Shown here one piece after another: positions 11,849 through 64,000 of a stretch of DNA of 64,000 nt. The stretch is from assembly GCA_017444525.1 (NCBI GenBank), contig JAFSWL010000004.1, forward strand, positions 40,851 through 104,850, in the 5' to 3' direction. Position numbers and translations under genes: made by a program. The notes beneath the pieces are model-generated. The model did not search any database. It was given only the letters and a program-made list of their open reading frames with translations, and was not told the DNA's origin. The stretch is from Alphaproteobacteria bacterium (GTDB lineage: Bacteria > Pseudomonadota > Alphaproteobacteria > RF32 > CAG-239). Position 1 is the first letter of the stretch. Each line of letters starts with the position of its first letter.

Positions 11849-14518
11849 TTATACCAAACGGCCATGGCAATGCTTAAACTTTTTACCGCTACCGCACGGG
11901 CAAGGATCATTACGGCCGACATCAGAGAAAATATCTTTATCGATTTCTTCGTCTGCGGTGATGGCTCCGTCATGGAATGTCGACATTTTGCGATTTTGTT
12001 CTTTGTTCATGGCACGTTGCATCTGTTGTTCAGAATCTGTTTGGATCACTGTATGGCAAATAACAATTGTAACACGCTCTTTAAGAATATCCAATAATTC
12101 GGAAAACATGTTGAATGCTTCTTTTTTATATTCATTGAGAGGATCTTTTTGACCGTAAGCGCGCAGTACAATGGTATGGCGCATTAAATCCAACGCGGCA
12201 ATATGATCTTTCCACAATTGATCGAGAACTTGTAATAAGATACTTTTTTGTACCATTTTAACGGCTTGCGGCGGCAAACTTTGTTCACGCTCCGCTAAAC
12301 GATTATCAACCTCGGCTAAAATGAGTTCTTGCATTTTATCGCTGTCAATATCAGGATTGTTGCACCAAGTTGCCAGCGGCATGCTGAAACTTGTTGTAGA
12401 TTGAATATCTTGTTTTAAGCCATCAATATTCCACTCTTCGGTAGAAGTTCCGTATGGAATATGGGCACGAATAATACCTTCTAAGTATTCATCGCGCATA
12501 TCCTTGATGATATCGGATACATCCTCTTGCTCCATAATTTCACGGCGCTCGGTGTAAATAATTTTGCGTTGCTCATTCATAACGTTATCATACTTGAGCA
12601 AATCTTTTCGAATATCAAAGTTGCGTTCTTCTACTTTTTTCTGTGCTTTTTCCAAAGCTTTGCTAATCCATGGGTGAACGAGTGCTTCGCCTTCCGGCAA
12701 GCCCAATCGATGCAAGACTGTAGAAATCTTTTCGGAACCGAAAATGCGCATCAAGTCATCCTCCATTGAGAGGAAAAATTTGGAAGTACCCGGATCGCCC
12801 TGACGACCGGAACGGCCGCGTAATTGATTGTCGATACGGCGGCTTTCGTGGCGCTCGGTACCGACAATATAAAGACCGCCTGCTTTGAGCACTTTTTCCT
12901 TATCGGCCGCAACCTCGGCTTCGATTTCCTTTTTGATTTGAGCGATTTGCTCTGCAGTTTCTTCTCCTGTAAGTTTCTCTTTAAGTTTCATGTCAGGGTT
13001 GCCACCGAGCTGAATATCTGTACCGCGGCCGGCCATATTGGTAGCAATGGTAATTGCTCCGGAGACACCAGCCTGTGCCACGATGGCAGCTTCACGTTCG
13101 TGATGGCGGGCGTTCAAAACTTCAAATTTGAGGTTAGGAGCTGCTTTGTGCAACAGCTCGGCTACCACTTCGGATTTTTCTACCGAAGTTGTGCCCACTA
13201 AAACAGGCTGCCCGCGGTCATGACTATCAATAATGGTATTAATTATGGCCTTATACTTTTCATTTGCGGTGCGATAAATTTCATCCTGTAAATCTTCACG
13301 AATGACCGGCTTATTGGTTGGAATTTCCACACAGGTTAAATTATATATATCAAAAAATTCATTTTCTTCGGTCATGGCAGTACCGGTCATACCGGCTAAT
13401 TTGGGATACAGACGGAAGTAGTTCTGGAAAGTAATGGAGGCCAGTGTCTGATTTTCTGATTGGATTTCCACACCTTCTTTTGCTTCTAATGCCTGATGCA
13501 ATCCGTCGCTGAAACGGCGACCTTCCATAATGCGTCCCGTAAATTCATCAACAATAACCACTTTACCGTCTTTGACAATGTAGTCAACGTCACGTTGGAA
13601 TAATTTGTGTGCGCGCAGAGCGTTGTTTACGTGTTGCACCAGGTTAACGTTACCGATGTCGTACAAAGCACCGTCGGTAATCAAGCCGGCACCGCGGAGT
13701 AGTTGCTCAATATGCTCCATTCCGGATTCTGTGAGCGTTACAGTGCGGCGTTTTTCATCTTTTTCATAGTCACTTTCGCTTAGGAAAGGCACTAACTTTG
13801 TTACTTTAACATAAGTATCGGAAGAATCTTCAGCCTGTCCGGAAATAATCAGCGGAGTACGTGCCTCATCAATTAGAATCGAATCGACTTCGTCGACGAT
13901 GGCATAATTAAAATCACGCTGCACCCGCTCGGCTAAACTGAATTTCATATTATCGCGCAAATAATCAAAGCCGAGTTCATTATTGGTACCGTAAACAATA
14001 TCTGCACTGTAGGCAGTACGGCGCTCGTTATCGTTTTTGCCGTGTACAATATAATCTACTGTTAGGCCTAAAAAGCGATAAATCTGCCCCATCCATTCAG
14101 CATCGCGTTTTGCCAAATAGTCATTTACCGTAACGATATGTACACCTTTGCCCTCAATAGCGTTTAAGTATGCGGCGAGTGTTGCTACGAGCGTTTTACC
14201 CTCTCCGGTTTTCATTTCGGCAATCATACCTTTATGCAAAACTATACCGCCGATGATTTGCACATCATAATGGCGTTGTCCCAAGACCCGTTTTGCCGTT
14301 TCGCGTACGGCAGCAAATGCTTCCGGTAAAATATCATCAAGTGTTTCGCCTTTTTTGAGGCGTTCACGAAATTCATCGGTTTTTGCTTTAAGCTGTTCAT
14401 CGGTTAATTTGATAAAGTCCGGCTCCAAGGCGTTTATTTGATTTACGATTTTATATTGTTTCTTTACAAAACGATCATTGGCACTGCCAAAAATTTTACG
14501 AGCGATTTTTCCTAACAT
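11849..14518 (-). CDS. secA: Preprotein translocase ATPase SecA
   Basis: Full-length SecA (889 aa) with MKTGEGKT Walker A, a DEAD-like [19 protein letters not shown] segment, and the C-terminal zinc site [14 protein letters not shown]. Confidence 0.97.
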
Positions 14519-48453: not shown

Positions 48454-48528
48454 GGTCCCATCGTCTAATGGTTAGGACATCACCCTTTCACGGTGGCAAT
48501 ATGGGTTCGAGTCCCGTTGGGATCACCA
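48454..48528 (+). tRNA. tRNA-Glu (anticodon UUC), CCA encoded
   Basis: Acceptor stem GGTCCCA/TGGGATC, anticodon loop CTTTCAC, T-arm ATGGG-TTCGAGT-CCCGT, discriminator A plus CCA. Confidence 0.95.
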
Positions 48529-48536
48529 ATACAAAC

Positions 48537-48565
48537 AACAGCCTACAAAATGGCTGTTTTTTTCT
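48537..48565 (+). terminator. Rho-independent terminator after tRNA-Glu
   Basis: AACAGCC-(8 nt)-GGCTGTT followed by a T-run. Confidence 0.7.
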
Positions 48566-48878
48566 TTTTAAATCAATCACTTAACCAAGTTCGAATGTTA
48601 TATTTTTGAAAATAGCAGTTTTGGGAAATTTTACGAACTCGTTATAGCAACAATGTAATAAAATCAAGCATTTAAGCAGTTGGAGTACGGTATGGTTGAT
48701 GTCCGCATTTAATTCGGTCTAAGTAACAACTTTTCACTGATTTGGGATTTGAAGATAATACAAACCTCTGTTAAATTTGCAAAGGTCTAGCTTTAATATT
48801 GTTTGCATTTTTGTACCAACGGCTTTACTTTTAGAAAAACTCATATTATTCTTTGATAAATTGGGATTGGATAGAGAT

Positions 48879-50125: not shown

Positions 50126-51082
50126 ATGTCAAACGACAAAAACACAAAAATTATTAGTGCAACACAATTAAAGGCTGCGATCAGAGCTTATAAGTTAAAA
50201 GGATTGATTATTCATCTACCTCCTAAAGCTTATAAAAAACACGCAAGTCAAACGGTGAGAAGCACCATTGAATCATTATGTAAAGATTTTGTTTTAACAC
50301 CTTTTTTAAGAGAAATTCCAAAGCGTCCGGGGGCACACCCTGGTAAAGGTTTGCCAAGTAAAAGAGATACGATTGAAGCTTTATATGGTTTGAACCGTTA
50401 TCGCACTGATCAAATTGAAGCTTTAGAAAAAAAATGGGTGCGTAAAGCGATTAAATATGCATTGAAAAATAATGAAAAAGCAGGTCCGGCTTTGGCGTTA
50501 CGTTTAAAGCGTGAAAATGCAAAACATTATGAAAAAGTTTTAGCCGCTAAGAAAAAAGAAGCAAAGATTGCGGCCCTTGCAGAAAGAATGTCAAAAGCTG
50601 TTGTGGCTGATGAAAGCTTACCGTATGCCGGTGCTATCATTGACTTAACACAGCCGGAAGTGTCGAAAGATTTAAATTCTGTTGCTCTTCCTTTGGCTGA
50701 AAATGCTTTGGTCTTTATTGCCGTCTACCCAAAGGACATGCTGAAGGCTTTGAAGTTAATTGAAGATTTGAAATTCACATACGTAGATAATATTGTGTGG
50801 GACCGAGATGTTCAGTTACCAACGGGTACCTGGAGCAAAAATCAGCACACAAATATTCTGATTGCACTCAAAGGGCAGCCTACCGAACCGGTAAATGAGT
50901 TTCAGCTTGAATCTGTGCATTTTGATCACAAGACTGCAGAGCTTTTATCTGTGCCTGATTACTACTTTAGCATGATGGAAGAGATGTGTCCGGGTGAACA
51001 GTATTTAGAAGTGTTTTCTTGCCGTCAATTCAGCGACAAGTGGCATGTATTGAAAATTAACAAAGAAGAAAAGGAAAACTAA
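50126..51082 (+). CDS. MT-A70-like methyltransferase-fold protein with a degenerate catalytic motif
   Basis: The C-terminal half follows MT-A70 topology (LVFIAVYP...FTYVDNIVWDRD...ILIALKG...EVFSCRQFSDKWHV), but DLTQ sits where DPPW is expected. AGGAG RBS. Confidence 0.55.
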   Translation: MSNDKNTKIISATQLKAAIRAYKLKGLIIHLPPKAYKKHASQTVRSTIESLCKDFVLTPFLREIPKRPGAHPGKGLPSKRDTIEALYGLNRYRTDQIEALEKKWVRKAIKYALKNNEKAGPALALRLKRENAKHYEKVLAAKKKEAKIAALAERMSKAVVADESLPYAGAIIDLTQPEVSKDLNSVALPLAENALVFIAVYPKDMLKALKLIEDLKFTYVDNIVWDRDVQLPTGTWSKNQHTNILIALKGQPTEPVNEFQLESVHFDHKTAELLSVPDYYFSMMEEMCPGEQYLEVFSCRQFSDKWHVLKINKEEKEN

Positions 51083-51084
51083 TT

Positions 51085-52242
51085 ATGACAAAACTTAATT
51101 TGAATAATGTGGTTGTAACCGGCCATGATTTTGAACGCTACACTGCTATTTGCTGCAGTGGAGGCATAGGAACCACAAAAACCAAGTATGTTGGCTATGA
51201 GATGGTTTGCGGTTGTGAACTTTTATTGGATAGGTGGCGCTTTTGTAGCGCCATCAATCCTCAAGTTGGCGAAGGCTTGATATGTGGCGATTTTACAAAA
51301 AATATTGAGAAAATTGCTAAGTTGCATATTCAGCGTGGAGCAAAAGGGTTAGTGATAACGTTGCCTTGTCAATCTATGAGCTTGGCCGGCGGTCAACATC
51401 TTGATGATCCATTGACTTGGCTGTTTTTAGATGCCTTAGAGTTGTGCAAAACAATTTATAAGCTCTCACCTGCACATTTGGAATGGGTTAAGTGGGAAAA
51501 CTGTCCGTACTTCATATCAGATAAGCAAGATCCAATCATCACGAACCGTTTGGATGGCAAAACAATTTTGCAAACCATAACGGAGGTGATGAACCGCTTA
51601 GATATGGATGTTAATGCTAAGGTATTGAATGCCTGCTTTTATGACACTGCTCAGAGCCGTAAACGAGGAATTATTCTTTGCAGAAAATTAAAACGTTGGG
51701 AGATGCCGGAGCCGTCAGAATTGCCTTTAACATGTGGTGAAGTTATCGGAGACAGAACCAAGTTTGAATATCTTGATTCATCGCACAGACGTTCGGCAAC
51801 CAATGAATTTCAACGCATCGGCTATGTTTCTCCGGTACAAGAAGCTTTCATCCGTAAAATTAAATCAGGTATGTCAGCGTTCAAGTGTATGGATAGAAGC
51901 TTGATAGTTAACCCTGATGGGATGCCAAGTCAAGCTCAACATATCAATAGCTCCTACGGACGCAACTCTTACAATCATCCAACACATACCATTACGCAAG
52001 GTAGCGATTCATTATGTGGGGATTGGACTTTACATCCGGGTGAAGATTTAGGCAATGGGGAATACAGTGATCCGCGTCCGTATTCAATCGCTGAAATCTT
52101 TGCTTTAACAGGGTTAGATGATAATTTTATCAAAGCTATTCCGACTTGGGCGCGTAGTAATGATAAATTGTTACGTCAGTTATGTGGCGAGGCACTGATG
52201 CCGAACTTGTTGGCCCATTGCTTAAGCACTCTTAATAAATAA
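51085..52242 (+). CDS. DNA (cytosine-5) methyltransferase, divergent
   Basis: Motif I CCSGGIG, motif IV TLPCQSMSLAGG, motif VI WENC, motif VIII AQSRKRGI, motif IX RPYSIAEIFALTGLDDNF, motif X CGEALMPNL. Confidence 0.8.
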   Translation: MTKLNLNNVVVTGHDFERYTAICCSGGIGTTKTKYVGYEMVCGCELLLDRWRFCSAINPQVGEGLICGDFTKNIEKIAKLHIQRGAKGLVITLPCQSMSLAGGQHLDDPLTWLFLDALELCKTIYKLSPAHLEWVKWENCPYFISDKQDPIITNRLDGKTILQTITEVMNRLDMDVNAKVLNACFYDTAQSRKRGIILCRKLKRWEMPEPSELPLTCGEVIGDRTKFEYLDSSHRRSATNEFQRIGYVSPVQEAFIRKIKSGMSAFKCMDRSLIVNPDGMPSQAQHINSSYGRNSYNHPTHTITQGSDSLCGDWTLHPGEDLGNGEYSDPRPYSIAEIFALTGLDDNFIKAIPTWARSNDKLLRQLCGEALMPNLLAHCLSTLNK

Positions 52243-52310: not shown

Positions 52311-52655
52311 TTAGATGATAACATTGTCTTTAGCAAACCTGAGCTCAATTTGACCGGATTGCATAAAAGGTAGTAATTTACTGATATCTACGTATTTGAG
52401 ATAAGTTTTTCTTGAATAAAATACCACCGATTGTTTGGTTTTATTACGTTTGAGATAGTCAAGAAGCTTGTTCATACAGTCTTTTTCATAAGATTTTATT
52501 CCGGAAGTTTCAAAAAAGACATCAACAACGTGCAAATTCTTTCTTTTACAATATTGAAGCATCTCGGCGAATTGTCTTGCTACCTCATTCACACCACCAC
52601 AGGAAAACAAAACAGCCTCCCGCGGATTTATGGTTTCTGTTATCGGATTATTCAT
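52311..52655 (-). CDS. Serine-recombinase catalytic-domain-like protein lacking the Arg/Ser catalytic motif
   Basis: AVLFSCGGVNE aligns with the AVIYARVST motif of resolvases, and the downstream pattern (LLDYLKRNKTKQSVVFYS...) matches the resolvase fold. The ATG at 52655 is preferred over the TTG at 52766. Confidence 0.45.
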   Translation of the reverse strand: MNNPITETINPREAVLFSCGGVNEVARQFAEMLQYCKRKNLHVVDVFFETSGIKSYEKDCMNKLLDYLKRNKTKQSVVFYSRKTYLKYVDISKLLPFMQSGQIELRFAKDNVII

Positions 52656-52809
52656 ATTTTTAGGTCCTACGTTAAATTTTATATTTAAGTAGAACTGCCG
52701 GATATATCCCGTTTTGCCACAAATCGCACCATCACAGCCGGATTTGGTTTTGATTGGTAGTTGCAAGAGAAAAGATAAAATGAGTGTTTTGGGGCGGTTT
52801 AAATGGCTT

Positions 52810-53005: not shown

Positions 53006-53452
53006 ATGATAACCGAAAACAGATGGCAACATATTTTAGGCGTGGCGCGAAAAGCTAAAATATTAGCAGGCAAATTAAAGCCGGATAGTGCGCAGTATGC
53101 AGAGGATATGTTTTTGCTCGGTGTTATGCACGATTTGGGCTACGAATTTATGGAAAGTAACGCTTCCCATGCGGCGGTCGGCGGAGAAATACTCAAACGC
53201 TCCGGTTATCAATATTGGCAGGAAGTGACTCTGCACGGTGATGAAACGGTTGAAAATATGACCGATGAGCTGTTTATTTTGAACTGTGCCGATATGATGA
53301 CGGGGCCGAGCGGCGAGGATTTTACTTTTGAAGAAAGACTGGAAGAAATTGCTTCCAGATTTGGCAAAGATGCCGCTCCGTATAAAAAGTGCGTGATTGA
53401 AGTACAAAAACTAAAGGCCGATAAGAGGTATCATTTTATTATTGGGGGATAA
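53006..53452 (+). CDS. HD-domain phosphohydrolase
   Basis: H...HD signature (QHILGVARKA...GVMHDLGY). AGGAG RBS. Confidence 0.75.
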   Translation: MITENRWQHILGVARKAKILAGKLKPDSAQYAEDMFLLGVMHDLGYEFMESNASHAAVGGEILKRSGYQYWQEVTLHGDETVENMTDELFILNCADMMTGPSGEDFTFEERLEEIASRFGKDAAPYKKCVIEVQKLKADKRYHFIIGG

Positions 53453-54190
53453 ATGGAAAAGAATTTATTACAAAAGACACTTTACGAAATTAATCAACAA
53501 AAACAAGTTGCCGGTTACAAAACTATCGAAAGCGACGATGGGTTTATTATAGTGTGGAATCATCCGGCACTATATTACTACAGTAAAGCTCATTGTAACA
53601 CTCTAACTGAGCAAAATTACATATTTTTCAAGAAGAATTATCCTTTTCAAGCCCTAGGTATTGCCGCTAATCATAGAAGTTCTCTAGAAAACGTGCATTC
53701 TGATTTGATATTCAACGGTACATCAGATACCATGTTACTTGAACAATCAGTGCATTTGACGGAAGACAGTAGATATAAAATCAAGCTGGTTGAAAATAAA
53801 GAGGATATTAAGATTTTTGCTCAAATTGCCAGTGAAGTGTTTAATCACCCTGAAATTTGCGAAAATTTAACAGAATCTTTAACCGCGGATTTAAAAGTTA
53901 TGAATTGCCATAAATACATTGGATATGAGGGCAACGAAGCCGCTGGAATTATTGAACTTTCGGAAGGTGAAGAAGCTGTTTTTATTTCTTGGGCTGCCGT
54001 AAGAAAAAATTTTAGACGGAAAGGTTTATGTCACGCCATGCTCGCATATGCGATAAATCGAGAAATTAAAAAAAATTTTACTAAATTCGTTTTAGTATCC
54101 TCGTCGGAAGGTAAAATTGTTTATCAATTGTTAGGTTTTAAAGATTTTGCTTTAAGATATAACTATACTCTGGAATGTAAAAAGGATTGA
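53453..54190 (+). CDS. GNAT-family acetyltransferase (C-terminal GNAT domain)
   Basis: VFISWAAVRKNFRRKGLCHAMLAYAI is a motif A. It abuts the HD gene stop. Confidence 0.7.
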   Translation: MEKNLLQKTLYEINQQKQVAGYKTIESDDGFIIVWNHPALYYYSKAHCNTLTEQNYIFFKKNYPFQALGIAANHRSSLENVHSDLIFNGTSDTMLLEQSVHLTEDSRYKIKLVENKEDIKIFAQIASEVFNHPEICENLTESLTADLKVMNCHKYIGYEGNEAAGIIELSEGEEAVFISWAAVRKNFRRKGLCHAMLAYAINREIKKNFTKFVLVSSSEGKIVYQLLGFKDFALRYNYTLECKKD

Positions 54191-54642
54191 TAATGACTGA
54201 TGATTGTATAAAAAAGGCAAAAGTTGCTGATTGGCCGGATTTAATGATGATTTTTGACCGCTCCTTGCGATCAACCGATGATTTATCTGATGATGATTGG
54301 AAAAAGCTCTATGAGCGTGTGATAACCTATTCATATCCGAATTTTGATACATATATCTATCAAAAAGATGGCAAAAGCGTAGCTTATATCAGTTATTGGA
54401 AAGAAAAGAAACTGATTAAAATGCTGTATGTTCTGCCGGAATATATTAATCAAGGTATTGGGCAGAAGTTAATTAAACACGTGATAGATACATATAATGA
54501 GCCTATGACAATCGGTGTCAAAGCCGGTAACGATATTGCAATGCATATTTACACCAAATTCGGTTTTCAAATCATTAAAGAGGAAGAATATGATGCTTCC
54601 GGCATTTATTATCCGCATTATGTTTTGGAGCGGAAAATCTAA
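54187..54642 (+). CDS. GNAT-family acetyltransferase
   Basis: LYVLPEYINQGIGQKLIKHVI is a motif A, and YTKFGFQ follows. 4-nt overlap with the upstream GNAT gene. Confidence 0.8.
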   Translation: MIMTDDCIKKAKVADWPDLMMIFDRSLRSTDDLSDDDWKKLYERVITYSYPNFDTYIYQKDGKSVAYISYWKEKKLIKMLYVLPEYINQGIGQKLIKHVIDTYNEPMTIGVKAGNDIAMHIYTKFGFQIIKEEEYDASGIYYPHYVLERKI

Positions 54643-54645
54643 GAA

Positions 54646-55149
54646 ATGATTTGGCTTGGATACTTTTTTACGATTCTTAACTACGCTTGCTATTGCTTGA
54701 GTCGCTTTATGAAGCATAAAAAAATGATGCTATTGTTAGATTTATTAGCAAAAGTTTTTACAGCATTAGGTTTATATTTTTTAGATTCATTGAGTGGAGC
54801 CTATATTTTTATGGCGGTATTTTTTATGCTTATAGTCGCCAATATAAAAGAAAGATTGAATAAACAATGGATGCTTGGTTATATTTTCTTTCAAAGTTTG
54901 TATCTTGCTATTTTGTTTTATACCTATGTTGGCATTTCTTCAATTTTGGTTGTAACAACGGTATCAATAACACTTTTTTGTATTTGGTGGCTGCCACCGC
55001 AACAAATGCGCGTTATCGGTGGATTAAATTGTTTTACTTATCTAGCATATCAAATAAGTATAAAAAATTGGGCTGGTTTATTGGAAATATTGGTTATTTT
55101 AAGTAATTTATTCTCATTTTTAAAATATAAAAAGTCAGATAATATATAG
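54646..55149 (+). CDS. Small polytopic membrane protein (YgjV-like?)
   Basis: Five or six hydrophobic helices. Last gene of the plus-strand cargo operon. Confidence 0.55.
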   Translation: MIWLGYFFTILNYACYCLSRFMKHKKMMLLLDLLAKVFTALGLYFLDSLSGAYIFMAVFFMLIVANIKERLNKQWMLGYIFFQSLYLAILFYTYVGISSILVVTTVSITLFCIWWLPPQQMRVIGGLNCFTYLAYQISIKNWAGLLEILVILSNLFSFLKYKKSDNI

Positions 55150-55155
55150 AGCTGT

Positions 55156-56481
55156 TTATGGACTTTTAAATTTATCATATCCCTTTAAATCTAACCTTTT
55201 GACATCAGAAATAAAAGAAGTTGTTCCAAGTGTAATCACGGGCAAATGATACCTTTTTGCAAAGTTCAAAGCTTCTAATAATGAATTTGCGTAGGTGGCT
55301 TGTATACCTTTTTGCTTGAGTATATCAATTTGCCTTTGAGTAAAAATATAGTGCGGATTTGATGACTTTGTTAAGATAATCTTTTCAGATATGTTCGCCA
55401 TAATTTCAGCAACACCCAGAAAATCTTTATCATCCGGAATACCGATAATTGTTACGACCCTAGAAAAATTCAAATTTTTCAAGGTTTCTTTTACACTTTC
55501 GGCATTAATGCGATTGATACAAGCATCAAGCATTATAAATGGTTCAGAACTAATGATTTCTTGTCGCCCCGGCCAACTCATAGCAACCAGCTTCTTTTTT
55601 ATATTATCGAGATTTATCTTTGGCAAAATTTGCTCGCAAATTGCTAATGCCAAAGCACAATTTTTCGCTTGATGTACGCCGAGCAGTGGTATTTTAATTT
55701 CCGGATATTTATTGTGTTTCGTTACCACATCAAACACCATTCCCGATTTTGAAAATTTGATATTTTCCGCCCAAAAATCTTTACCATATTCTAACAAACG
55801 GTACTTTTTTTGTTCTGCTTGATTGCGTATAATTTCTAAAACCTCAGCTTTTTGTTCTGCTGTTGCTACGATTTTAACATCATTTGTAATAGTGCAAACT
55901 TTATCTTTAGCAATTTCTTTAAGTGTTTTTCCAAGTTCTCTTGTGTGTTCTAAGAAAATTGTATTTATGACAGCATACTGATGTTTTATATTTGTGACGT
56001 CATCATATTTCGCCCCTTTGCCATGTTCAACAACATTAAATTCCGTATGGTTTTGATTAAAATATGTTAGAGCAATTGCTGCCTGAATACCGATAGGACT
56101 GATATATTCCTGAAAAGCCAATGTTTGTTCAATTTTATCAAAATTCGGTTTAATTTTTTCAACACATTTAATAAAATCAATATCTGATATTTGCTTGCCG
56201 TTAATCCTAAACCGTTCACAAAAATCGCTGATATGCGGACTAGTCATTAAGCCGACATTGTATTTTGTTTGTAAAATTTCCGAAATCATATAAGCGACCG
56301 AACCTTTACCTTTGCTTCCGGTAACCGTAATTGCCGGTGTTTTCGAAAGTTTTTGCAAAATTTCTTTAGAATATTGAGGATGTCTCTTGAGTGCATCTTT
56401 ATCTTCAAAAACAAGATGCTTCTCAGCCTTCAAATACGACTGGTATATATAGTTTTCCGCCTCATCTTTAGTCTGCATCAA
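55156..56481 (-). CDS. Folylpolyglutamate synthase/Mur-ligase-family (FolC-like) amide ligase
   Basis: ITVTGSKGKGSV P-loop and LMTSPHISDFCERFRINGKQIS (FolC SPHL..ERI..NG pattern). 441 aa. Confidence 0.8.
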   Translation of the reverse strand: MMQTKDEAENYIYQSYLKAEKHLVFEDKDALKRHPQYSKEILQKLSKTPAITVTGSKGKGSVAYMISEILQTKYNVGLMTSPHISDFCERFRINGKQISDIDFIKCVEKIKPNFDKIEQTLAFQEYISPIGIQAAIALTYFNQNHTEFNVVEHGKGAKYDDVTNIKHQYAVINTIFLEHTRELGKTLKEIAKDKVCTITNDVKIVATAEQKAEVLEIIRNQAEQKKYRLLEYGKDFWAENIKFSKSGMVFDVVTKHNKYPEIKIPLLGVHQAKNCALALAICEQILPKINLDNIKKKLVAMSWPGRQEIISSEPFIMLDACINRINAESVKETLKNLNFSRVVTIIGIPDDKDFLGVAEIMANISEKIILTKSSNPHYIFTQRQIDILKQKGIQATYANSLLEALNFAKRYHLPVITLGTTSFISDVKRLDLKGYDKFKSP

Positions 56482-57325
56482 AGTCTCCCTTAATGGTTTT
56501 TATGACAGCACCGGCAACATTTATTCCGGTTGCTTTTTCAATGCCTTCCATTCCGGCGGTCACATTTATTTCGCAAAAATACGGTTTGTTTGCGCCAAAA
56601 AGCAAGTCGAGGCCTATAAAATCTAAACCAGTCTGCTTATAGATATCTTGTGCGATAGTTTGAAACTCCGGTATTATTTCTATTTTATGAACAGATGAAC
56701 CGAGAGCAACATTTGCTCTGAAATCATTATTAGATATTCGCTCCATTCCGGCAATTACTTCTCCCTTGACACAATACAGGCGCATATCATGCCCATAACT
56801 TTCTTCAATAAATTCTTCGAAAAGCCATTCCTTGGTTGGCAAAAAAGATTGAGATAAAGGAAGGTAGTCCTCTTTATTTTTAATCAAAAATATTTCTTGT
56901 CCCATAGAACTTTCAAGCCCTTTGGCAACAAAAGGTAATTTTAAGCGGTCTGCCAACATTTCAAAAGGCAAATCAGAGAGACCGGCAATATATTTTGGTT
57001 TTTCAAAACAGTCAGATTCAATATTTTTCAATTGTTCAAGTTTATTGATGTAAAGATTTAACGGTTTGACAGCATTATAACTTTTTTTGCCCAATTTGTT
57101 TAAATTGTCCTTAATTTTCCCATATTTGTAACGATTAATTACAAAATCACGCATAGAAAGTAAAGTTTCGCTATTATAACATCCATCCTGAGTTACGTAA
57201 GAATCGTAAATACCTATTAATTTTAAATCAATATTTTGTTTTTCAGATTCCTCCAATAAACGTTTACAAGTATAAGCGTTCCCCATATTGTTATATTTTT
57301 CAATCAGATATCCTCTTAATTTCAT
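56468..57325 (-). CDS. RimK-like ATP-grasp ligase
   Basis: PFVAKGLESSMGQEIFLI, EEFIEESYGHDMRLYCV, NDFRANVALG, IGLDLLF...YFCEINVTAGMEGIEKATGINVAG. Confidence 0.8.
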   Translation of the reverse strand: MKLRGYLIEKYNNMGNAYTCKRLLEESEKQNIDLKLIGIYDSYVTQDGCYNSETLLSMRDFVINRYKYGKIKDNLNKLGKKSYNAVKPLNLYINKLEQLKNIESDCFEKPKYIAGLSDLPFEMLADRLKLPFVAKGLESSMGQEIFLIKNKEDYLPLSQSFLPTKEWLFEEFIEESYGHDMRLYCVKGEVIAGMERISNNDFRANVALGSSVHKIEIIPEFQTIAQDIYKQTGLDFIGLDLLFGANKPYFCEINVTAGMEGIEKATGINVAGAVIKTIKGDFDAD

Positions 57326-58066
57326 CTATTTTTCCTTTAATAGTTCAGACCAGTCAAGAGCCGATAAATTTTGAATGATTTGCTGCAATGCAGTTATTAA
57401 AGTAGTAAATTGTTCTTGATTATTTGGATTTCTGTATTCAGCATTGATTTCAAGTTGCAAGCAGGCTGTATCCGTAGTTTCCGATATACCTTTTGTAACT
57501 GTATTTTGACCACCAGCCGAAAAAACTTTATTTTTCCAAACAGATTTTTTAGGTGTTTCCAATTTTGCGAAATTTTGATAAAATGCCGACATTACAATGT
57601 CTTCAATTATTTTGATACCATGTAATGAAGTTAAATCCTCTTGTTTTTCCTGTTCTGATTTATCCGGTGACGGAGCTGTACCAATCTCAACGGCATATTC
57701 ACGACTTGCTGCCGAACCATGTAAATCAAGTAAAACATAAATTGTCGTATTTTTTAAGTATTCTTTCAAAGCACTTTGATAATCATTAGTATTCGGCGCA
57801 TCAAAATTTGGGTCTTTTTCTACAAAGCAAGTATTATAAATTAAATGACAACCGGTAGTTTGTTGTAAATAAAGCGCTATTCCTCCCGTCCATAAGTCAG
57901 CCCACTTCTTTTGCCCGTTGCGAAAATGATTTACTGCATGTGGAGCAGAAAGCATAATCGGAATCTTTCCATAGATTATCTTGTAACTGTCGCTTAAAGT
58001 CCCATCATAGTTGTTAACGCTAAAATTTTTTTCATATAATTCAATTTGTTTAAGCAGATTTGGCAT
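57326..58066 (-). CDS. N-formylglutamate amidohydrolase (FGase)-family-like hydrolase
   Basis: PIMLSAPHAVNH and VLLDLHGS resemble FGase metal-binding motifs. Its stop abuts the ATP-grasp start codon. Confidence 0.5.
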   Translation of the reverse strand: MPNLLKQIELYEKNFSVNNYDGTLSDSYKIIYGKIPIMLSAPHAVNHFRNGQKKWADLWTGGIALYLQQTTGCHLIYNTCFVEKDPNFDAPNTNDYQSALKEYLKNTTIYVLLDLHGSAASREYAVEIGTAPSPDKSEQEKQEDLTSLHGIKIIEDIVMSAFYQNFAKLETPKKSVWKNKVFSAGGQNTVTKGISETTDTACLQLEINAEYRNPNNQEQFTTLITALQQIIQNLSALDWSELLKEK

Positions 58067-58365: not shown

Positions 58366-58638
58366 ATGCAAAAACAATTTGAACAATACTTACAATCAAA
58401 GAATTACAGGCCGACAACTTCTATTGATTATCCGGCACGTTTAGAAAGACTTTGTCGTAAAGAAAAAATCTCTTATGAACATCTTGCACAACATATCTAT
58501 GAAATTATGCCTCAATATGAAAATACCGGTAAAAAGTCATCTTATGGCAAGAGAAGCCATTCATCAGTAATCAATGCTTTACGTCGTTTTGCTGAATTTT
58601 TATCAGAAACCAACATTCAAGTAGAAGGAGCCAACTAA
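58366..58638 (+). CDS. Hypothetical small island protein
   Basis: AAAGGAAA RBS. The N-terminal pattern YL...NYRPTTSIDYPARLERL weakly resembles the N-terminus of 48879..49916. Confidence 0.45.
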   Translation: MQKQFEQYLQSKNYRPTTSIDYPARLERLCRKEKISYEHLAQHIYEIMPQYENTGKKSSYGKRSHSSVINALRRFAEFLSETNIQVEGAN

Positions 58639-58848
58639 GATAAATTAATACAAACACCAAAGCTCGTTTTTTGGCCCTATACGTATAGATTTATTTTTTA
58701 CTATAAACTAACCAGTAGAAATGAATCTTGATTGTATAGGGCCATTTTTTAAGACCATACCAATATTATATAATTTTTACATATTTACAATGATTTATAA
58801 CAGCATTTTATTTTTGATAAATGATTGAAGGACAGGTATAGAGTATTT

Positions 58849-59703
58849 TTAACAGGTATGTTCCATTAATACTTCCTGCACTTTATCAAATAAATGTTTA
58901 TCTATAATGGTTGGATATTTATGAGGATAAAGAGTTTGATTCCAACGCTGCATACCAATATAAAATTTATTCTTAAGCATGTCATTAATACATGTTTCAG
59001 AAACAAGCGCACCATTCCTGTTTTTTAATCCCAATGTATGTGCTAATTCTGTTAATGTCTTAATGGAATAACTACCGGTAGAATATTCTTTAAATAATTT
59101 AGTGATTATTGGTGCTTTTATAGTGTCAACAACGACATCAGCATAACCAGAAGCATCTCTGACATTTTTATAGCCAATAGGAGCTAAATACATACAACGA
59201 CCATTACTAATAAAGTGTTGTTGTGAAGCTTTTATATTACGTGATAAGCTATTTATATAGTAATATTTCATTAAAAACATAGCATTAATACGTACTCTCA
59301 TTTCTGTATTATAGTTATTTTTATCAATTATAAAGTCTTGTTTAAGAATATGTATTATTAACTTTCCCATAGTAATATAAGGTTCCAAAGTTTGTAAATC
59401 TCTTACATCTTGAAAAATATCATAAAAATCATTACAAACGACATGAATTCTACCTTTTTGTGTGTTTATAAAGGATAACATATTAAATAAAGATTTTTTT
59501 AAACCTCTTTTAGAACAAACAGCTAAATTATAGACTTTTATAATTTTGAGACTTTTATCACTGCAATAGTTAACTAAAACATCAATAATATTTTTACTAA
59601 CACTTTTTCTTGCTACATAATAAATTACAGCTCTTTCTTTTGTTTTTGCTTGGTTAGAATCATTATCAATCCATTCTTCAAGCCAATTTTCAACATTTTT
59701 CAT
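58849..59703 (-). CDS. Serine recombinase-like protein (resolvase plus recombinase domains) lacking the zinc-ribbon/coiled-coil C-terminus
   Basis: AVIYYVARKSVS N-terminal motif. The recombinase domain APIGYKN...LFKEYSTGSYSIKTLTELAHTLGLKNRNG...ML.NKFYIG parallels 62143..63768. GGAG RBS before the ATG at 59703. Confidence 0.6.
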   Translation of the reverse strand: MKNVENWLEEWIDNDSNQAKTKERAVIYYVARKSVSKNIIDVLVNYCSDKSLKIIKVYNLAVCSKRGLKKSLFNMLSFINTQKGRIHVVCNDFYDIFQDVRDLQTLEPYITMGKLIIHILKQDFIIDKNNYNTEMRVRINAMFLMKYYYINSLSRNIKASQQHFISNGRCMYLAPIGYKNVRDASGYADVVVDTIKAPIITKLFKEYSTGSYSIKTLTELAHTLGLKNRNGALVSETCINDMLKNKFYIGMQRWNQTLYPHKYPTIIDKHLFDKVQEVLMEHTC

Positions 59704-60076
59704 ATTTTTACTCCAAATCAATAAAATTAATAAAGTTTTTAACATCAGATACAGTTTATGCTCTGATATCATTGATTTGTCGTGATATTGGAAAAATGTA
59801 AAACCATTAATGAAAAATTTTAAAATTATTTTTCCATTTCTAATTTTTTGATGTTTGTAACTTGTATTTTTGCATAACATAAGTCAAAAATCATCAAGAC
59901 ACATTTTTTGACCATAGGACTCAATATTTATCTTTGGTATAGGTTTAGTTATAAAAATCAAATATGCTTGTTTATGGGTTGTTTATGACTCAATGGACAG
60001 CGTTTTATTTTAGCAAATCAGAATAGTAGAAATAATAATAGTCAGAAAAGCTTATTTTAGATACCCGCAACAAACT

Positions 60077-60742
60077 TTACCATTTAATATTAAACAGTAT
60101 ATTAGATGGAATAATACGGTCATACCAATCTGTCTTATCAAATGTCTTTATATCTTTTAAGCAGTAGTATATAACCTCATTATCTTTAACTTTTTCAATA
60201 TAGTAAGTCTTAGGCGATAAAGATAAATCCAAACACGCACTATCTAACGCTTTTTCTATCAATTCATCACTATACCGAACACAATGTAATAATATATGGA
60301 AATGGTAATTATAACCGTCATGTTGTCCTTTTTCAGCAAATGCATAGAAACGTACATGCCTACCAGTCCAACGAGAACCTACTAAGTGCTGTTCAAACCT
60401 AGCCATAAACCGACGTAAATGATTTCTAGATACATCAAGCTCAGGACTTCTCATATTCACAGGAAATTGTATGGTAAGAAAATGTGTAGGCTTAAAATGT
60501 GCTATCCAATCATATATATGTTTACGCTTAATCTCATACTTATTTTTCATATCACGTACATATACTTTTTTAGATTTTTCTTCTTGCAATGGGGTATCAG
60601 GTTTATCATTGACAGCAGCAGAAACATTTTCATTAACTTCATTGCATTTTTGATACTTGGCAATTAATGACACTTTTTGATGCTTAACTACTTCTTGATT
60701 ATGACGTAAATATTGTAAAAACATCTCAGTAACTTTATTCAT
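60077..60742 (-). CDS. HUH-superfamily rolling-circle Rep-like protein
   Basis: Motif 1-like THFLTIQFP, HUH motif YHFHILLH, and a Tyr motif VIYYCLKDIK. Confidence 0.55.
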   Translation of the reverse strand: MNKVTEMFLQYLRHNQEVVKHQKVSLIAKYQKCNEVNENVSAAVNDKPDTPLQEEKSKKVYVRDMKNKYEIKRKHIYDWIAHFKPTHFLTIQFPVNMRSPELDVSRNHLRRFMARFEQHLVGSRWTGRHVRFYAFAEKGQHDGYNYHFHILLHCVRYSDELIEKALDSACLDLSLSPKTYYIEKVKDNEVIYYCLKDIKTFDKTDWYDRIIPSNILFNIKW

Positions 60743-61357
60743 TTAAGTAATTCCTTTTTTTATTATAAAATATTTTACTTTTAATAATGTACTGATTGAT
60801 TGCTCCTATCGGTGTTACCTCATCGCAACTCAACAGATACTACTGCAGGAATGGGAACACTTGATAAGCATTCCACAAAAAAAAGCAGCACAAGAGATGG
60901 GTTTTCAGCCTTTCACAAATTACTTAGCTTTTAAGCACCATCTGAATCACTAGAACAAAAATTTTGATGGTTTCTGCTTATATAAATTTCCAAAACTAAA
61001 AAAATAATCTGAACGAAGCCGGAACATTTATAGATAAAATGCATTATAAACCGTATGAATGAAATAGCTAATAGCCTTCTACTGGAAAAGACTAAGGTTG
61101 ATTTTATTCTCACACGTAAAAAGCGCCAAAATAAGCTTTTTTTGAAAATCAAGAGTCAGCCAGACACACCACCGCATTATATTTATATAAAAAAATATAA
61201 TAAACACGCATACCCCTGGGCCGCTTAAGCTATTTTTTAAAAGTATGAACCTCTGCTGAATCGACAGAGGTTGAGATAATCAGACCAAAAATTAGAAATG
61301 GAAATTTATTTTTAAAAAATTTTGTAGAATTGCATCAACATCAGACTTCTATAATGC

Positions 61358-61567
61358 ATGACTGATACTTATAGCCAACTCAAAGATGAGTTATCAGTTT
61401 TGTATCCCGGTGTTACGGATGCAGAACTAAATGAAATGACAGATAGACTGGTAGAATTTTTTGTTATCGGTACCAAAGCATTTTATGAAAATGGAAAAAA
61501 TTTAATAAACGGTTTTACAAATAAAAATAATCTCGACATACCAGTAAATGAAAAAGTTAATAATTAA
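61358..61567 (+). CDS. Hypothetical small protein
   Basis: 69-aa ORF immediately upstream of the recombinase-like pair. Confidence 0.4.
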   Translation: MTDTYSQLKDELSVLYPGVTDAELNEMTDRLVEFFVIGTKAFYENGKNLINGFTNKNNLDIPVNEKVNN

Positions 61568-61582
61568 AAAAGGAAAAACAAT

Positions 61583-61966
61583 ATGAAAAATAATAATTTT
61601 AATAAAAACGCTATAATAGTAGCTTCTTGTCCGAGAAATATTTCAAAAAGAGTGGTTACTATAGAAAAACAACTTGATTATTGTCGTCATTACTGTTCTG
61701 TAAATGGTTTTCAAGTGCTAAAAGAGTTTTCATTTTGTACAAGTGATAGTGAAAGAGGAATAAAAACAATGAAAGAAATAATAAATTTTGTGCATAATCA
61801 CACGCAGAAAATATCAATTATTTCATATAATATGCGACGTATACAGGGTAATTCTACTCAATTAACAGAATTAGATAATCTACGCTTACAAGGAAAATTA
61901 GAATTACATTTTTTGAAAGAAAATAGAATATTTAAACTCGATAATCCCGTCCATACTATAATTTAA
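61583..61966 (+). CDS. Resolvase catalytic-domain-only protein with a degenerate active-site motif
   Basis: NAIIVASCPRNISKRVVTIEKQLDYCRHYC aligns with QAVIFARVSTKEQEPGASLDAQKAAMEDYC of the adjacent integrase, but the Arg/Ser motif is not conserved. AGGAAAAA RBS. Confidence 0.5.
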   Translation: MKNNNFNKNAIIVASCPRNISKRVVTIEKQLDYCRHYCSVNGFQVLKEFSFCTSDSERGIKTMKEIINFVHNHTQKISIISYNMRRIQGNSTQLTELDNLRLQGKLELHFLKENRIFKLDNPVHTII

Positions 61967-62142
61967 GTGATTTTGATTTTTGGTTATGATTAAAGAGTAA
62001 ATTAAATTTGATATAATATATTGAATCTTCATTATAAATTTTAATAGAATATCGTTAGAAAGTGATGTTTTTTAGTGTTTTTCTTGTTAATTGCACGTTA
62101 TAATAGAAATATGATAAAAACATCACTTAGAGGATAGATAAA

Positions 62143-63768
62143 ATGGCTAAAGTATATAGATATGCAAAAGCTGCACCATGCACTCAAGCTGTAATATTTG
62201 CTCGTGTTTCTACCAAAGAACAGGAACCTGGAGCTTCGTTGGATGCACAAAAAGCGGCTATGGAAGATTATTGCGTCAAAAAAGGTCTCAAAATTGTAAA
62301 TAAATACAGGGTTATTGAGAGTTCAACAAATGGCAAACGTGTAGTGTTTCATGAAATGCTTGATTTTGTGCGTAAACAGAAGAATAAAACAGCCATTGTT
62401 GTGCATTGTATTGATCGTTTTCAACGTCGTTTCAATGAATGTGTAGAAGTTGAGACGCTGCTTCTTGATGATAAAATTGATATACATTTTTGTAAAGAAG
62501 ACTTGATCCTAACTAAAAATAGTTCTTCTGCAGATATTATGCGTTGGGATATGGGTATTTTATCAGGTAAAATGTATGTTGCAAACCTACGAGATAATGT
62601 CAACCGTGGTATGGAATATAAATGGTCCAATGGTGAATATCAAACGAAATCTCCTGTCGGATATTTAAATATTCCGAAAACCAAAACAACACCGGCAAAT
62701 ATTATTTTAGATCCGGAACGTGCACCTTTAGTCAAAAAGATGTTTGAAATGTATGCGACTGGTTGTTATTCTATTAAAAGCTTGCAACAATTTGCAAAAG
62801 AAATGAATTTATGCTCGATTAGAAGTAAAAATCATAAACCTTTAGGGCGTGAAACTATCTGGAATACATTAAAGAATCCGTTTTATTACGGAGAGATGAA
62901 AATTCGTGGTGAAATAATGCCTCATAAATACGAGCCAATTATCTCAAAAGCCTTATTTGAACAAGTACAAGAAGTATTATCAGGTAAAAATACATGTGTA
63001 CCGACAAGAGAATATGGAGGCATATCATTTGCATTTCGTAAGTTGATAAAATGTGCAGAATGTGGCGGTACCATATCATCAGAACAGCATTTTAAGAAAA
63101 GCGGTAGAAAATATACATATTTACGTTGCACACATCCAAAAGGCTGCTGTCATCAAGGTTTGGTCAGTGAATTGCAACTTTTAAAACAGCTTGATGATGA
63201 AGTATTTAGCAAAATCCGGTTAAATGCCAATATTATTGATTTGCTCAAAAAATGTGTTCAGAAAAAGATGATGGAAGATTCAGAAGCTAATGCAGTAATG
63301 AAAAGACAGATTACTAATGAATTAAACCAACTTGAAGCACGAGAGCAGAGAGTTAAGGACTGTTTTTTCAATGGTGACATAACGCGTGATGAATGGAACG
63401 AAGAAAAGGCCAATATTGCAAGTAAAAGAGAAGAATTACAACATACTGCGGAAAAATACGCAGATATTAGCAGAGACATACAATATACAGTTAATGAAGT
63501 TTTGGATATCGCTGCTTGTGCATCAGAAATTATGAAAAAAGCAAATCCGGAGCAACAAAATAATTTGCTTGGTCTTATACTTGATGAATGCTACTTAGAC
63601 GGCGAGAGACTAATATATAAACTCAAAAAACCGTTTGATATGCTGATAAATCTGAAAAATAGCGACAATTGGTTTGAGTTTGATAAATCCGATGTACCGG
63701 AATACGAAAGCCTCGCCAACCAAGTGCAAATGTATAAAATCAAAGCAGAAGTGAATGTGGCAGAGTAA
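62143..63768 (+). CDS. Large serine recombinase (integrase)
   Basis: VIFARVSTKEQ catalytic motif, recombinase domain (SPVGYLN...MFEMYATGCYSIKSL), zinc ribbon CAECGG...YLRCTH, and a coiled-coil C-terminal region. 541 aa. Confidence 0.9.
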   Translation: MAKVYRYAKAAPCTQAVIFARVSTKEQEPGASLDAQKAAMEDYCVKKGLKIVNKYRVIESSTNGKRVVFHEMLDFVRKQKNKTAIVVHCIDRFQRRFNECVEVETLLLDDKIDIHFCKEDLILTKNSSSADIMRWDMGILSGKMYVANLRDNVNRGMEYKWSNGEYQTKSPVGYLNIPKTKTTPANIILDPERAPLVKKMFEMYATGCYSIKSLQQFAKEMNLCSIRSKNHKPLGRETIWNTLKNPFYYGEMKIRGEIMPHKYEPIISKALFEQVQEVLSGKNTCVPTREYGGISFAFRKLIKCAECGGTISSEQHFKKSGRKYTYLRCTHPKGCCHQGLVSELQLLKQLDDEVFSKIRLNANIIDLLKKCVQKKMMEDSEANAVMKRQITNELNQLEAREQRVKDCFFNGDITRDEWNEEKANIASKREELQHTAEKYADISRDIQYTVNEVLDIAACASEIMKKANPEQQNNLLGLILDECYLDGERLIYKLKKPFDMLINLKNSDNWFEFDKSDVPEYESLANQVQMYKIKAEVNVAE

Positions 63769-63856
63769 ATTTTGAAAAGAAAGATTAGACACATCTTGAT
63801 TTTAACCATAAGCAAACCCTATATGATTGATATGATAAAATTTATAGGGGAAACTT

Positions 63857-64000
63857 ATGCAAAAACTAAAAGTTAACTTAAACTACTGCTATGGTATAAA
63901 AAATTTAGAATATGAATTTGATTTTGAAAATGGCAAAAATTATTTGCTTTATGCTCCTAATGGAATGATGAAAACTTCTTTTACAAAAACATTTGCGGTT
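63857..64000 (+). CDS. 5' end of an ORF with an ATPase-like N-terminus; truncated by the window end
   Basis: AGGGGA RBS. MQKLKVNLNYCYGIKNLEYEFDFENGKNYLLYAPNGMMKTSF resembles the N-terminus of AAA_13/AAA_15-type (PrrC/RloC/Abi-like) ATPases, with an atypical Walker A. Confidence 0.35.
   Translation, partial: MQKLKVNLNYCYGIKNLEYEFDFENGKNYLLYAPNGMMKTSFTKTFAV

Follow-up and report, generated by a model that had tools for sequence, protein, structure and literature searches.

The window analysed here is a stretch of 64,000 nucleotides (nt) from contig JAFSWL010000004.1 of an alphaproteobacterium of the RF32/CAG-239 lineage. Within it two compact operons face each other. The minus-strand operon consists of three genes, hereafter the trio, which encode protein X (protein 7; 57326..58066, 246 amino acids, aa), a RimK-like ATP-grasp ligase (56468..57325, 285 aa) and a Mur ligase of a divergent FolC clade that we call T-type (55156..56481; 441 aa from the TTG at 56481 or 440 aa from the ATG at 56478). 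X is the first gene; the RimK start at 57325 abuts the X stop at 57326, and the ligase and RimK-like genes overlap by 14 nt with the TTG start or by 11 nt with the ATG start. The plus-strand operon encodes an HD protein (53006..53452; Pfam HD, 25.3 bits, cutoff 22), two GNAT proteins (GNAT1, 53453..54190, 35.2 bits, cutoff 23.6; GNAT2, 54187..54642, 48.3 bits, cutoff 20.7) and a membrane protein of the Imp-YgjV family (54646..55149; 39.6 bits, cutoff 23.5). There are 0 nt between HD and GNAT1, an overlap of 4 nt between the GNAT genes and a spacer of 3 nt before the YgjV gene, and the stop codons of the facing operons lie 6 nt apart. All seven open reading frames (ORFs) and their tight junctions had been described in an earlier, sequence-only reading of this DNA, and all are present where it had placed them; in profile searches six of the seven proteins match the families that it had assigned, and X has no sequence-profile match. 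In DNA this rich in AT, a scan for promoters and terminators told little: it counted 35 promoter-like sites where 24.9 +/- 4.4 were expected and 4 terminator-like sites where 3.8 were. The functional unit at this locus is the three-gene operon of X, the RimK-like and the FolC-like gene, which runs from 58066 to 55156 on the minus strand.

Homologues of X were collected, together with their flanking DNA, from metagenomes and GTDB species genomes, and 25 other trio-bearing loci were compared (individual loci are denoted by L and a number). The order of the three genes and their overlapping junctions are kept in rumen and gut Alphaproteobacteria, Lachnospiraceae, Spirochaetaceae/Treponema, Bacteroidaceae, Peptoniphilus and Atopobiaceae/Olsenella, and the trio spans at least five phyla. 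All-versus-all clustering of the neighbours at the 25 loci gave just three widely shared clusters, namely X, the ligase and RimK, and DNA similarity between the window and ten relatives is confined to 55197-58053 (72-86 % identity), which is exactly the trio. The three genes are real, because they are under purifying selection, with ratios of non-synonymous to synonymous substitution rates (dN/dS) of 0.10-0.21 against four relatives; for X the ratio against relatives is 0.11-0.14. Translational coupling suggests that the three proteins are made together. The co-translated minus-strand unit that the sequence-only reading had proposed is thus genuine, and consists of a Mur-ligase/FolC-type enzyme, a RimK-type ATP-grasp enzyme and a hydrolase of FGase fold joined by conserved junctions; of the two alternatives that it had offered for a neighbourhood search, conservation of the trio was found and conservation of the heptad was not. 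When the neighbours that are not conserved were annotated with Pfam in seven lineages, no transporter or folate gene proved to be common to them. When L001 (10001-12886) is compared with 55156-58066 of the window, X is 65 % identical and RimK and the ligase are 84-85 % identical, a discrepancy that would imply recombination between module variants, also within the module.

The T-type ligase scores well above the cutoff of the FolC subfamily (TIGR01499, 219.4 bits, cutoff 162.65; Mur_ligase_M, 60.5 bits) and its best relatives in the PDB are all FolC/FPGS enzymes (T. maritima FolC 1o5z, 130 bits; 1fgs, 121 bits), with which, as with 1w78, it shares family and domain layout. FolC forms gamma-glutamyl bonds through an acyl phosphate (PMC10861534). 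The T-type alignment keeps the omega-loop of FolC, SPH...ER. It also keeps the P-loop Lys, the Mg-binding Glu, the central His, HQxxN, GR, the C-domain Asp and the Lys that is carbamylated in FolC, residues that we take to be among the invariants of Mur ligases. Since family, layout and catalytic residues are those of FolC, the T-type ligase is almost certainly an ADP-forming ligase that works via an acyl phosphate. What sets it apart is a series of altered motifs. The P-loop GTNGKGS of canonical FolC is replaced by GSKGKGS; the Mg-region motif, EVGLGGRLDATN in canonical FolC, reads E-x-GKGA-(K/R)-x-DDV; DGAHN in the C-domain becomes DACIN (His to Ile), GSLY near the C-terminus becomes GTTS, and the N-terminal ~45 residues differ as well. 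The T-type ligase therefore carries none of the FolC signature motifs GTNGKGS, DGAHN and GS(L)Y; GSKGKGS, DACIN and GTTS take their places in the window protein and in all X-linked ligases that were aligned or scanned for motifs. The variant P-loop and Mg-region motifs occur in every X-linked ligase with an intact N-terminal region among the fetched loci, whereas canonical-type paralogues at the same loci retain GTNGKGS and the His of the DGAHN motif. Of the 120 closest database matches to the ligase, all 120 have GSKGKGS and 102 have DAC[IV]N. We take the DGAHN motif to lie near the amino-acid substrate site, and what the His-to-Ile change means depends on this assumption. A paper in Nat Commun 2024 contains no residue-level assignment of the FolC glutamate site.

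In contrast to FolC, the T-type ligase always shares an operon with an X-domain protein. Canonical folC is found alongside: in Peptoniphilus (L019, L020) the two are in one operon, in Atopobiaceae (L026, L028) canonical folC comes immediately after the T-type gene, and in Lachnospiraceae (L005, L013) it lies ~7 kb upstream. Because the signature motifs are changed and a canonical folC coexists in several genomes, the T-type ligase would appear to be a neofunctionalised FolC paralogue and not a housekeeping enzyme. It is very unlikely to be a plain housekeeping folC beside which the RimK-like gene and X stand as unrelated neighbours. Such a reading could draw on the score above the FolC subfamily cutoff, on the name 'bifunctional FPGS/DHFS' that public databases give to the ligase and on the lack of a second Mur-ligase gene or canonical folC within the 64-kb window, but conservation of the neighbours, whose reading frames overlap, extends across phyla, the signature motifs are changed in every member examined, and canonical folC stands alongside at the six loci just named. 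The 'FolC2' of the folate comparative-genomics literature was considered as the same enzyme and rejected, being an unrelated enzyme. On the plus strand within the ligase gene lies an antisense ORF (55391-55672) with 61-79 % identity in relatives; it was rejected as a gene, its apparent conservation being a by-product of conservation of the coding strand.

The RimK-like protein matches the RimK family model over its full length (PF08443, 109.8 bits, cutoff 21) and falls just under the cutoff of rimK_fam (TIGR00768, 138.3 against 143.4 bits). It lies below the equivalog cutoffs for RimK (PRK10446, 76.7 against 331 bits), MptN (74.8 against 350), LysX (68.3 against 275.6) and CofF (59.2 against 300). 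The nearest solved structures are those of RimK, the S6 glutamate ligase (4iwx, 5zct and 7qyr; 72 bits for E. coli RimK 4iwx/5zct). With these scores it is probably an alpha-L-glutamate ligase that shares with RimK the chemistry of ATP-dependent alpha-glutamate addition, and it appears to be a member of the family that is orthologous to no characterised enzyme, including the S6-modifying RimK. Its genomic partners are a FolC paralogue and a hydrolase and not the usual neighbours of rimK, and nothing points to S6 as its substrate. Enzymes of the RimK family attach alpha-linked glutamate to proteins or to the tails of cofactors; free glutamate, too, is polymerised, by RimK and MyfB (PMC8141765). 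Since the RimK gene is missing from L015 and L021-L025, the T-type ligase and the X domain form the most constant pair of the module.

Protein X has no match in Pfam (even at E<=10), NCBIfam, PADLOC or PHROGs, and a profile of 30 homologues has none among PDB sequences. An AlphaFold2 model of X from 30 homologues has a predicted local distance difference test (pLDDT) score of 94.3 and a predicted template-modelling (pTM) score of 0.92. In Foldseek searches its best match is Atu2144, a protein of the FGase family (2odf, E 4.5e-6), and N-formylglutamate amidohydrolase FGase (2q7s, E 4.4e-5, TM-scores 0.54/0.50), the phage poly-gamma-glutamate hydrolase PghP (3a9l, E 7.2e-5, TM-scores 0.50/0.57) and 21dc (E 1.4e-4) are also found, with Amidase_3 enzymes and M14 carboxypeptidases at lower ranks. 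H43, R49, K54, D57, T60, G61, D85, D114, H116 and G129 are invariant in the family alignment and E127 and E206 nearly so, and the conserved residues spell APH...D-x-x-TG...LDLHG...QLEIN. This pattern agrees with a predicted metal site of the His/acid/His type and a putative catalytic glutamate, for which H43, D57, H116 and E206 are the candidate residues. The FGase family (PF05013; 2q7s, 2odf) and PghP (3a9l), the closest structures to X, share with it the motif logic APH...(D/E)-x-x-TG...HG...E, where the PghP motif is the one that we take this enzyme to have. Their substrates are N-acyl or gamma-linked glutamates: FGase cleaves N-acyl-glutamate bonds and PghP gamma-glutamyl bonds. X differs from both in that it has no sequence-profile match to either, that TM-scores are only ~0.5, that the spacing from the first His to the acidic residue is not the same and that X is often fused to a ~430-aa extension ending in a membrane helix.

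From its modelled structure we infer that X is a putative metal-dependent amidohydrolase of FGase/PghP/M14-like fold. The label 'FGase-like' of the sequence-only reading is borne out at the level of the fold and fails at that of the sequence family. The same reading had said that two outcomes would speak against it, namely a FolC-like gene that is the only, canonical folC of the genome with unconserved neighbours, or the absence of matches to ATP-grasp, Mur-ligase and FGase profiles. Neither came about in full: the ligase proved non-canonical and its neighbours conserved, while one of the three proteins, X, does miss its predicted profile. An exhaustive profile search with clustering at 50 % identity yielded 1,527 representatives of X at E<=1e-3 and 281 at E<=1e-30. 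X thus founds a sizeable unannotated family without a Pfam model, and where its homologues are named in public databases they are called 'hypothetical protein'.

In groups other than Alphaproteobacteria and Spirochaetes, the X domain usually forms the N-terminal part of a protein of 600-770 aa, for instance at L003 (10768-12798), L005 (10933-12921), L019 (7977-10019) and L026 (7977-10004), and also at L017, L015 and in P0211-P0241. This long form gives a weak but recurrent CDC48_N/Molydop_binding-like signal, which suggests a double-psi barrel, and ends in a hydrophobic helix followed by the terminal motif (N/S)EER(I/V)KVK-COOH, found in 24 of 34 long-form and in none of 101 short-form X proteins. 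Long-form X looks tail-anchored. Neither the long form nor a remnant of its tail is found in the window or in its relatives, and the lineage of the window would thus have a minimal, soluble version of the module. Further variants of the setting occur among distant homologues. In Halalkalibacter alkalisediminis (L039, 5899-10162) distant X homologues stand between genes for Opp-type oligopeptide ABC-transporter ATPases and a gamma-glutamyltranspeptidase, which suggests that part of the X family may serve the catabolism of gamma-glutamyl peptides; L040, L044 and L047, which were not annotated, probably have the same setting. Peribacillus tepidiphilus (L078, 5126-13536) has a distant version of the module, with X, two RimK proteins and a 586-aa beta-barrel protein encoded in this order between valS and a folC with canonical motifs, five genes when this folC is counted, and in Saccharibacteria a canonical-type FolC lies ~0.5 kb from X. 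Genes for mechanosensitive channels are found one to three genes from the module in two unrelated lineages, MscL in Alphaproteobacteria (L087, 8638-9066; L011) and an MscS-type channel in Clostridia (L021, 10029-11264; L023), which hints, if weakly, at a connection with osmotic or glutamate homeostasis.

The sequence-only reading had treated all seven genes as one block, a claim that does not survive comparison: outside this species the four plus-strand genes are never found with the trio, and homologues of HD, the two GNATs and YgjV occur at none of the 25 other trio-bearing loci. Relatives of the GNAT genes at 100 % identity, from several samples of the same species, have all seven genes together. 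At 80 % identity GNAT-GNAT-YgjV stands between relA/spoT-acpS and recR-ybaB-dnaX with neither HD nor the trio, at 75 % GNAT-GNAT occurs alone and at 68 % a single GNAT; HD is specific to this species. The GNAT-GNAT-YgjV unit (53453-55149 on the plus strand of the window; also L100-L102, in related Alphaproteobacteria) is an independent conserved module in a housekeeping context. Because the GNAT relatives carry it without the trio and trio loci lack it, the two operons are independent modules that chance has placed side by side in this species. The N-terminal ~120 residues of the first GNAT are uncharacterised. In L001 a PQ-loop/semiSWEET gene (12981-13241) directly follows the ligase gene, and in the window the YgjV-family gene (54646-55149) abuts its 3' end; these two families are, we presume, related in Pfam clans. 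A PQ-loop or YgjV protein beside the ligase might be a transporter partner, in two cases that are not conserved.

Had the seven genes formed a mobile cassette, the HD protein, the GNATs and the membrane protein would act together with the trio in the synthesis, acylation and export of a decorated metabolite, and the system might serve in defence against phages or in competition. Tight packing with convergent stops 6 nt apart, the recurrence of all seven genes in several samples of the same species, low guanine-plus-cytosine (GC) content with recombinase genes nearby and the PQ-loop/semiSWEET gene of L001 at the end equivalent to that of YgjV would fit such a cassette. We give it hardly any credence, and the comparative context largely refutes it, since none of the four plus-strand genes is found at any other trio locus, GNAT-GNAT-YgjV is conserved alone in a housekeeping context and DNA similarity to relatives ends exactly at the ends of the trio. 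Furthermore, PADLOC-DB gave no defence-system match for any of the seven proteins, and X has no match in phages and just two matches of ~22 % identity in plasmids, both large; all ligase matches labelled as phage are below 34 % identity.

The wider setting bears on the same question. A tRNA-Glu gene (48454-48528, plus strand; ARAGORN, Rfam) lies 6.6 kb upstream of the region in which the trio is found, and GC falls from ~0.41 to ~0.30-0.35, the trio having 0.335 against 0.406 for the host. The same deficit is seen in alphaproteobacterial and Lachnospiraceae relatives and not in Bacteroidaceae, Peptoniphilus and Atopobiaceae. To the left of the trio are an HTH (helix-turn-helix) protein, MT-A70 and C5 DNA methyltransferases and a sub-threshold resolvase fragment. 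The methyltransferase genes, MT-A70-like (N6-adenine) and C-5 cytosine, are adjacent (50126-52242) with no obvious restriction endonuclease nearby, and may be orphan or element-borne. On the right a separate mobile element (58366..64000; Pfam; GC 0.298) abuts the trio. It encodes an integrase-SAM-like fragment, a Recombinase-domain protein, a Rep-like protein, a resolvase-like fragment and an intact large serine recombinase of 541 aa, and it continues past the window with AAA_13 and RelB/YafQ toxin-antitoxin genes (L103), the contig ending inside it. In other samples the assembly breaks just upstream of X, between X and a 90-aa ORF. The mobile element to the right of the trio is a separate insertion. 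On its minus strand a 221-aa protein (60077-60742) has a sub-threshold match to REP_ORF2-G2P (rolling-circle Rep-like), and the adjoining Recombinase-domain protein (58849-59880) has no detectable resolvase catalytic domain; the genes at 58849-60742 are remnants of a small integrative element. The serine-recombinase genes that had been said to bracket the block hold up in part: the left one (52311-52766) is a sub-threshold fragment (19.9 against 23.3 bits) and the right one (58849-59880) contains no domain beyond Recombinase.

In relatives at 67-80 % identity the trio stands between an alpha/beta-hydrolase gene and corA/lspA, with pgi and mutL next in the 79-80 % loci, and in one relative it is near rpsL-rpsG-fusA. 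The trio is thus found among housekeeping genes, is absent from phages and nearly so from plasmids, and the idea that it is the cargo of a mobile cassette or island, also raised in the sequence-only reading, finds no support. In the nearest relatives (L007, L008, L009, L012, L030) the trio again has tRNA-Glu as a neighbour, and on either side of the trio there are copies of a sequence of ~150 bp whose beginning lies within the 3' end of the tRNA; the window has a single copy (48514-48675). By blastn, copies in L007 (7744-7904), L008 (7752-7904, 10899-11054) and L009 (7753-7904, 12205-12353) show 79-90 % identity to the window sequence, and further copies are at 6688-6810 and 10902-11011 in L007 and at 11061-11141 in L009. 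These repeats look like accretion of attachment (att) sites at a tRNA integration hotspot. Rfam searches of the window and three relatives returned tRNAs only, and a known RNA element or riboswitch was rejected as an explanation of the repeat, which has no Rfam family. Relative to tRNA-Glu, the orientation of the trio is inverted in the window as compared with L007 and L008. No second copy of the tRNA-Glu 3' end and no long direct repeats were found in 48.3-64 kb, the right end of the island lying beyond window and contig. In our reading the trio sits at a recombination hotspot without belonging to the cargo of the present island. An older horizontal transfer is suggested by its low GC, and we take its history to be an old horizontal acquisition followed by vertical inheritance in the alphaproteobacterial clade.

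Judged by family and fold, the trio would encode two ATP-dependent carboxylate-amine ligases and one metal-dependent amidohydrolase, all from glutamate-acting lineages. That it builds and trims an amino-acid-decorated metabolite or short polymer, as the sequence-only reading had suggested, remains the best class of explanation, because the characterised members of all three lineages act on glutamate; that the RimK, MptN, CofF and LysX models score in one range on the RimK-like protein supports a reading in terms of glutamate. Within this class we tentatively propose, inferring substrate, linkages and the role of the hydrolase, that the trio builds and trims a mixed gamma/alpha-glutamyl chain on a glutamate-tailed, folate-type cofactor. 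The T-type ligase would activate the gamma-carboxylate of a glutamyl-terminated acceptor as an acyl phosphate and add an amino acid, probably glutamate, although the changed DGAHN motif may leave this amino acid open. The RimK-like enzyme would then add alpha-linked glutamate at the C-terminus of the chain, and X would free terminal glutamate, setting the length of the chain or recycling the product. A mixed gamma/alpha tail of this kind would resemble those of F420 (CofE, then CofF), tetrahydrosarcinapterin (MptN), methylofuran and E. coli folates. Alpha-linked distal glutamates have been reported in E. coli folates (PMC1971073), and mixed alpha/gamma glutamate tails have precedents (PMC8141765, PMC1971073, PMC10861534). 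A folate-type acceptor is slightly favoured because of the ancestry of the ligase, its retained omega-loop and the repeated linkage to canonical folC. The proposal can also claim the conservation of the trio under purifying selection, the FGase/PghP fold of X and the place of distant X homologues between genes for Opp-type peptide transporters and gamma-glutamyltranspeptidase.

Among known systems, the pairs that make cofactor tails are similar in logic. In CofE and CofF (F420), MptN (tetrahydrosarcinapterin) and MyfA/MyfB (methylofuran), a gamma-ligase is followed by a RimK-family alpha-ligase to give tails of mixed linkage, and in CofF/MptN-type systems the RimK-family enzymes act on small-molecule glutamyl termini. 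The trio differs in that its gamma-type ligase has the Mur/FolC fold and is neither CofE nor an ATP-grasp enzyme, that a dedicated hydrolase is co-encoded and that the MptN and CofF equivalog scores are far under cutoff (75 and 59 bits against 350 and 300); and no use of cofactors of the F420, sarcinapterin or methylofuran type is known from its hosts, anaerobes of the gut and rumen. Cyanophycin synthetase CphA1, with an ATP-grasp G domain and a Mur-ligase-like M domain, combines a backbone ligase with a ligase for side-chain carboxylates, a pairing of ligase types that the trio shares, and together with cyanophycinase it offers a turnover hydrolase in the same system. In the trio, by contrast, the enzymes are split into separate genes, with no N domain and no fused N-G-M architecture, and scores against cyanophycin synthetase TIGR02068 are 33.2 and 14.1 bits for a cutoff of 850. 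The analogy with cyanophycin synthetase drawn in the sequence-only reading is therefore sound at the level of superfamilies and does not extend to membership by sequence. Cyanophycinase is a serine peptidase, whereas the hydrolase of the trio has the FGase/PghP fold. That reading recognised no named system in these genes, and we too found none that matches the trio; the literature covered, to which the Iyer/Aravind 2009 amidoligase survey did not belong, yielded no description of this gene combination.

Several observations weigh against a folate-type cofactor. No gene for folate biosynthesis or transport is a conserved neighbour of the trio (25 loci, with seven lineages annotated). The alpha-ligation step is not universal, RimK being absent from the loci given above, and in most lineages the X domain has the membrane-helix-bearing form of 600-770 aa, which would be odd for trimming a cytosolic cofactor. 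With three FolC signature motifs lost, the T-type ligase may use a different acceptor from FolC, accept a different incoming amino acid, or do both. Finally, the adjacency of folC in Firmicutes could merely record a tandem duplication.

A self-contained polymer is nearly as likely as a folate-type cofactor tail, and likewise possible without being probable. Here the RimK-like enzyme would make an alpha-glutamate backbone from free glutamate, the T-type ligase would add on gamma-carboxylates and X would be a depolymerase, by a split cyanophycin-synthetase-like or PgsB-like logic. The resulting polyglutamate, branched or of mixed alpha/gamma linkage, would serve storage, osmotic balance or the envelope. 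The conserved module contains no gene for an acceptor core, the polymerisation of free glutamate by RimK and MyfB offers a precedent (PMC8141765), the fold of X resembles that of PghP, and X homologues adjoin genes for gamma-glutamyltranspeptidase and peptide transporters. The C-terminal membrane helix of long-form X can be counted for a polymer too, as poly-gamma-glutamate synthesis is a membrane-associated process, as can the MscL or MscS channels near the module in two unrelated lineages, and the altered DGAHN and GSLY motifs argue for substrates other than folate. However, the likeness to cyanophycin synthetase (33 and 14 bits, cutoff 850) and to PgsB (21 bits, cutoff 223) does not go beyond the superfamily, no component like PgsC, PgsA or PgsE and no exporter is conserved, the version in the window is wholly soluble, the ligase is far nearer to FolC than to any polymerase and the module is recurrently linked to canonical folC.

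Alternatively, the acceptor could be a protein. In reversible protein polyglutamylation, comparable to that by TTLL/CCP on tubulin or by RimK on S6, the T-type ligase would start a branch on a Glu side chain or a C-terminus, the RimK-like enzyme would elongate it and the M14-like X would remove it. The canonical substrate of RimK, which provides the nearest solved structures, is a protein C-terminus, and the fold of X is common to M14 carboxypeptidases; in long-form X the tail NEER(I/V)KVK is strictly conserved, both acidic and basic, and the CDC48_N-like barrel could bind peptides. We nevertheless consider this unlikely. No conserved protein that could be the substrate is encoded alongside the trio, whether in the window or in alphaproteobacterial relatives, the RimK equivalog score is 76.7 against a cutoff of 331, and we know of no ligase of the Mur or FolC type that acts on proteins. 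A broader form of the idea, which is rather doubtful as well, takes the trio as a polyglutamylation cycle in which the FolC paralogue would start gamma branches, the RimK-like enzyme would elongate them in alpha linkage and X, with its FGase/PghP fold, would remove them, the product being branched alpha/gamma-polyglutamate or glutamylated protein tails. The remaining probability goes to chemistry other than that of the readings set out here.

Whatever its product, the module defines two unannotated families, a FolC clade that can be diagnosed by its motifs and a hydrolase family of ~1,500 representatives at 50 % identity. As current annotation calls the T-type ligase 'bifunctional FPGS/DHFS', genome-based reconstructions of the folate pathway in gut and rumen bacteria probably miscount folC. 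The module is carried by cultured bacteria, namely Peptoniphilus lacrimalis, Oribacterium asaccharolyticum, Olsenella kribbiana and Peribacillus tepidiphilus, and is therefore directly testable. If the product is a mixed-linkage cofactor tail, the trio would provide gene candidates for the alpha-glutamylation of folate-type cofactors, an activity reported decades ago to which, to our knowledge, no gene has been assigned. If it is a polymer or a protein modification, the chemistry of glutamylation would be new. A branched alpha/gamma-polyglutamate would be a glutamate analogue of cyanophycin, and a polyglutamylation cycle, if true, would be a prokaryotic counterpart of eukaryotic TTLL/CCP built from other folds, which in most lineages would work at the membrane via the tail-anchored long form of X.

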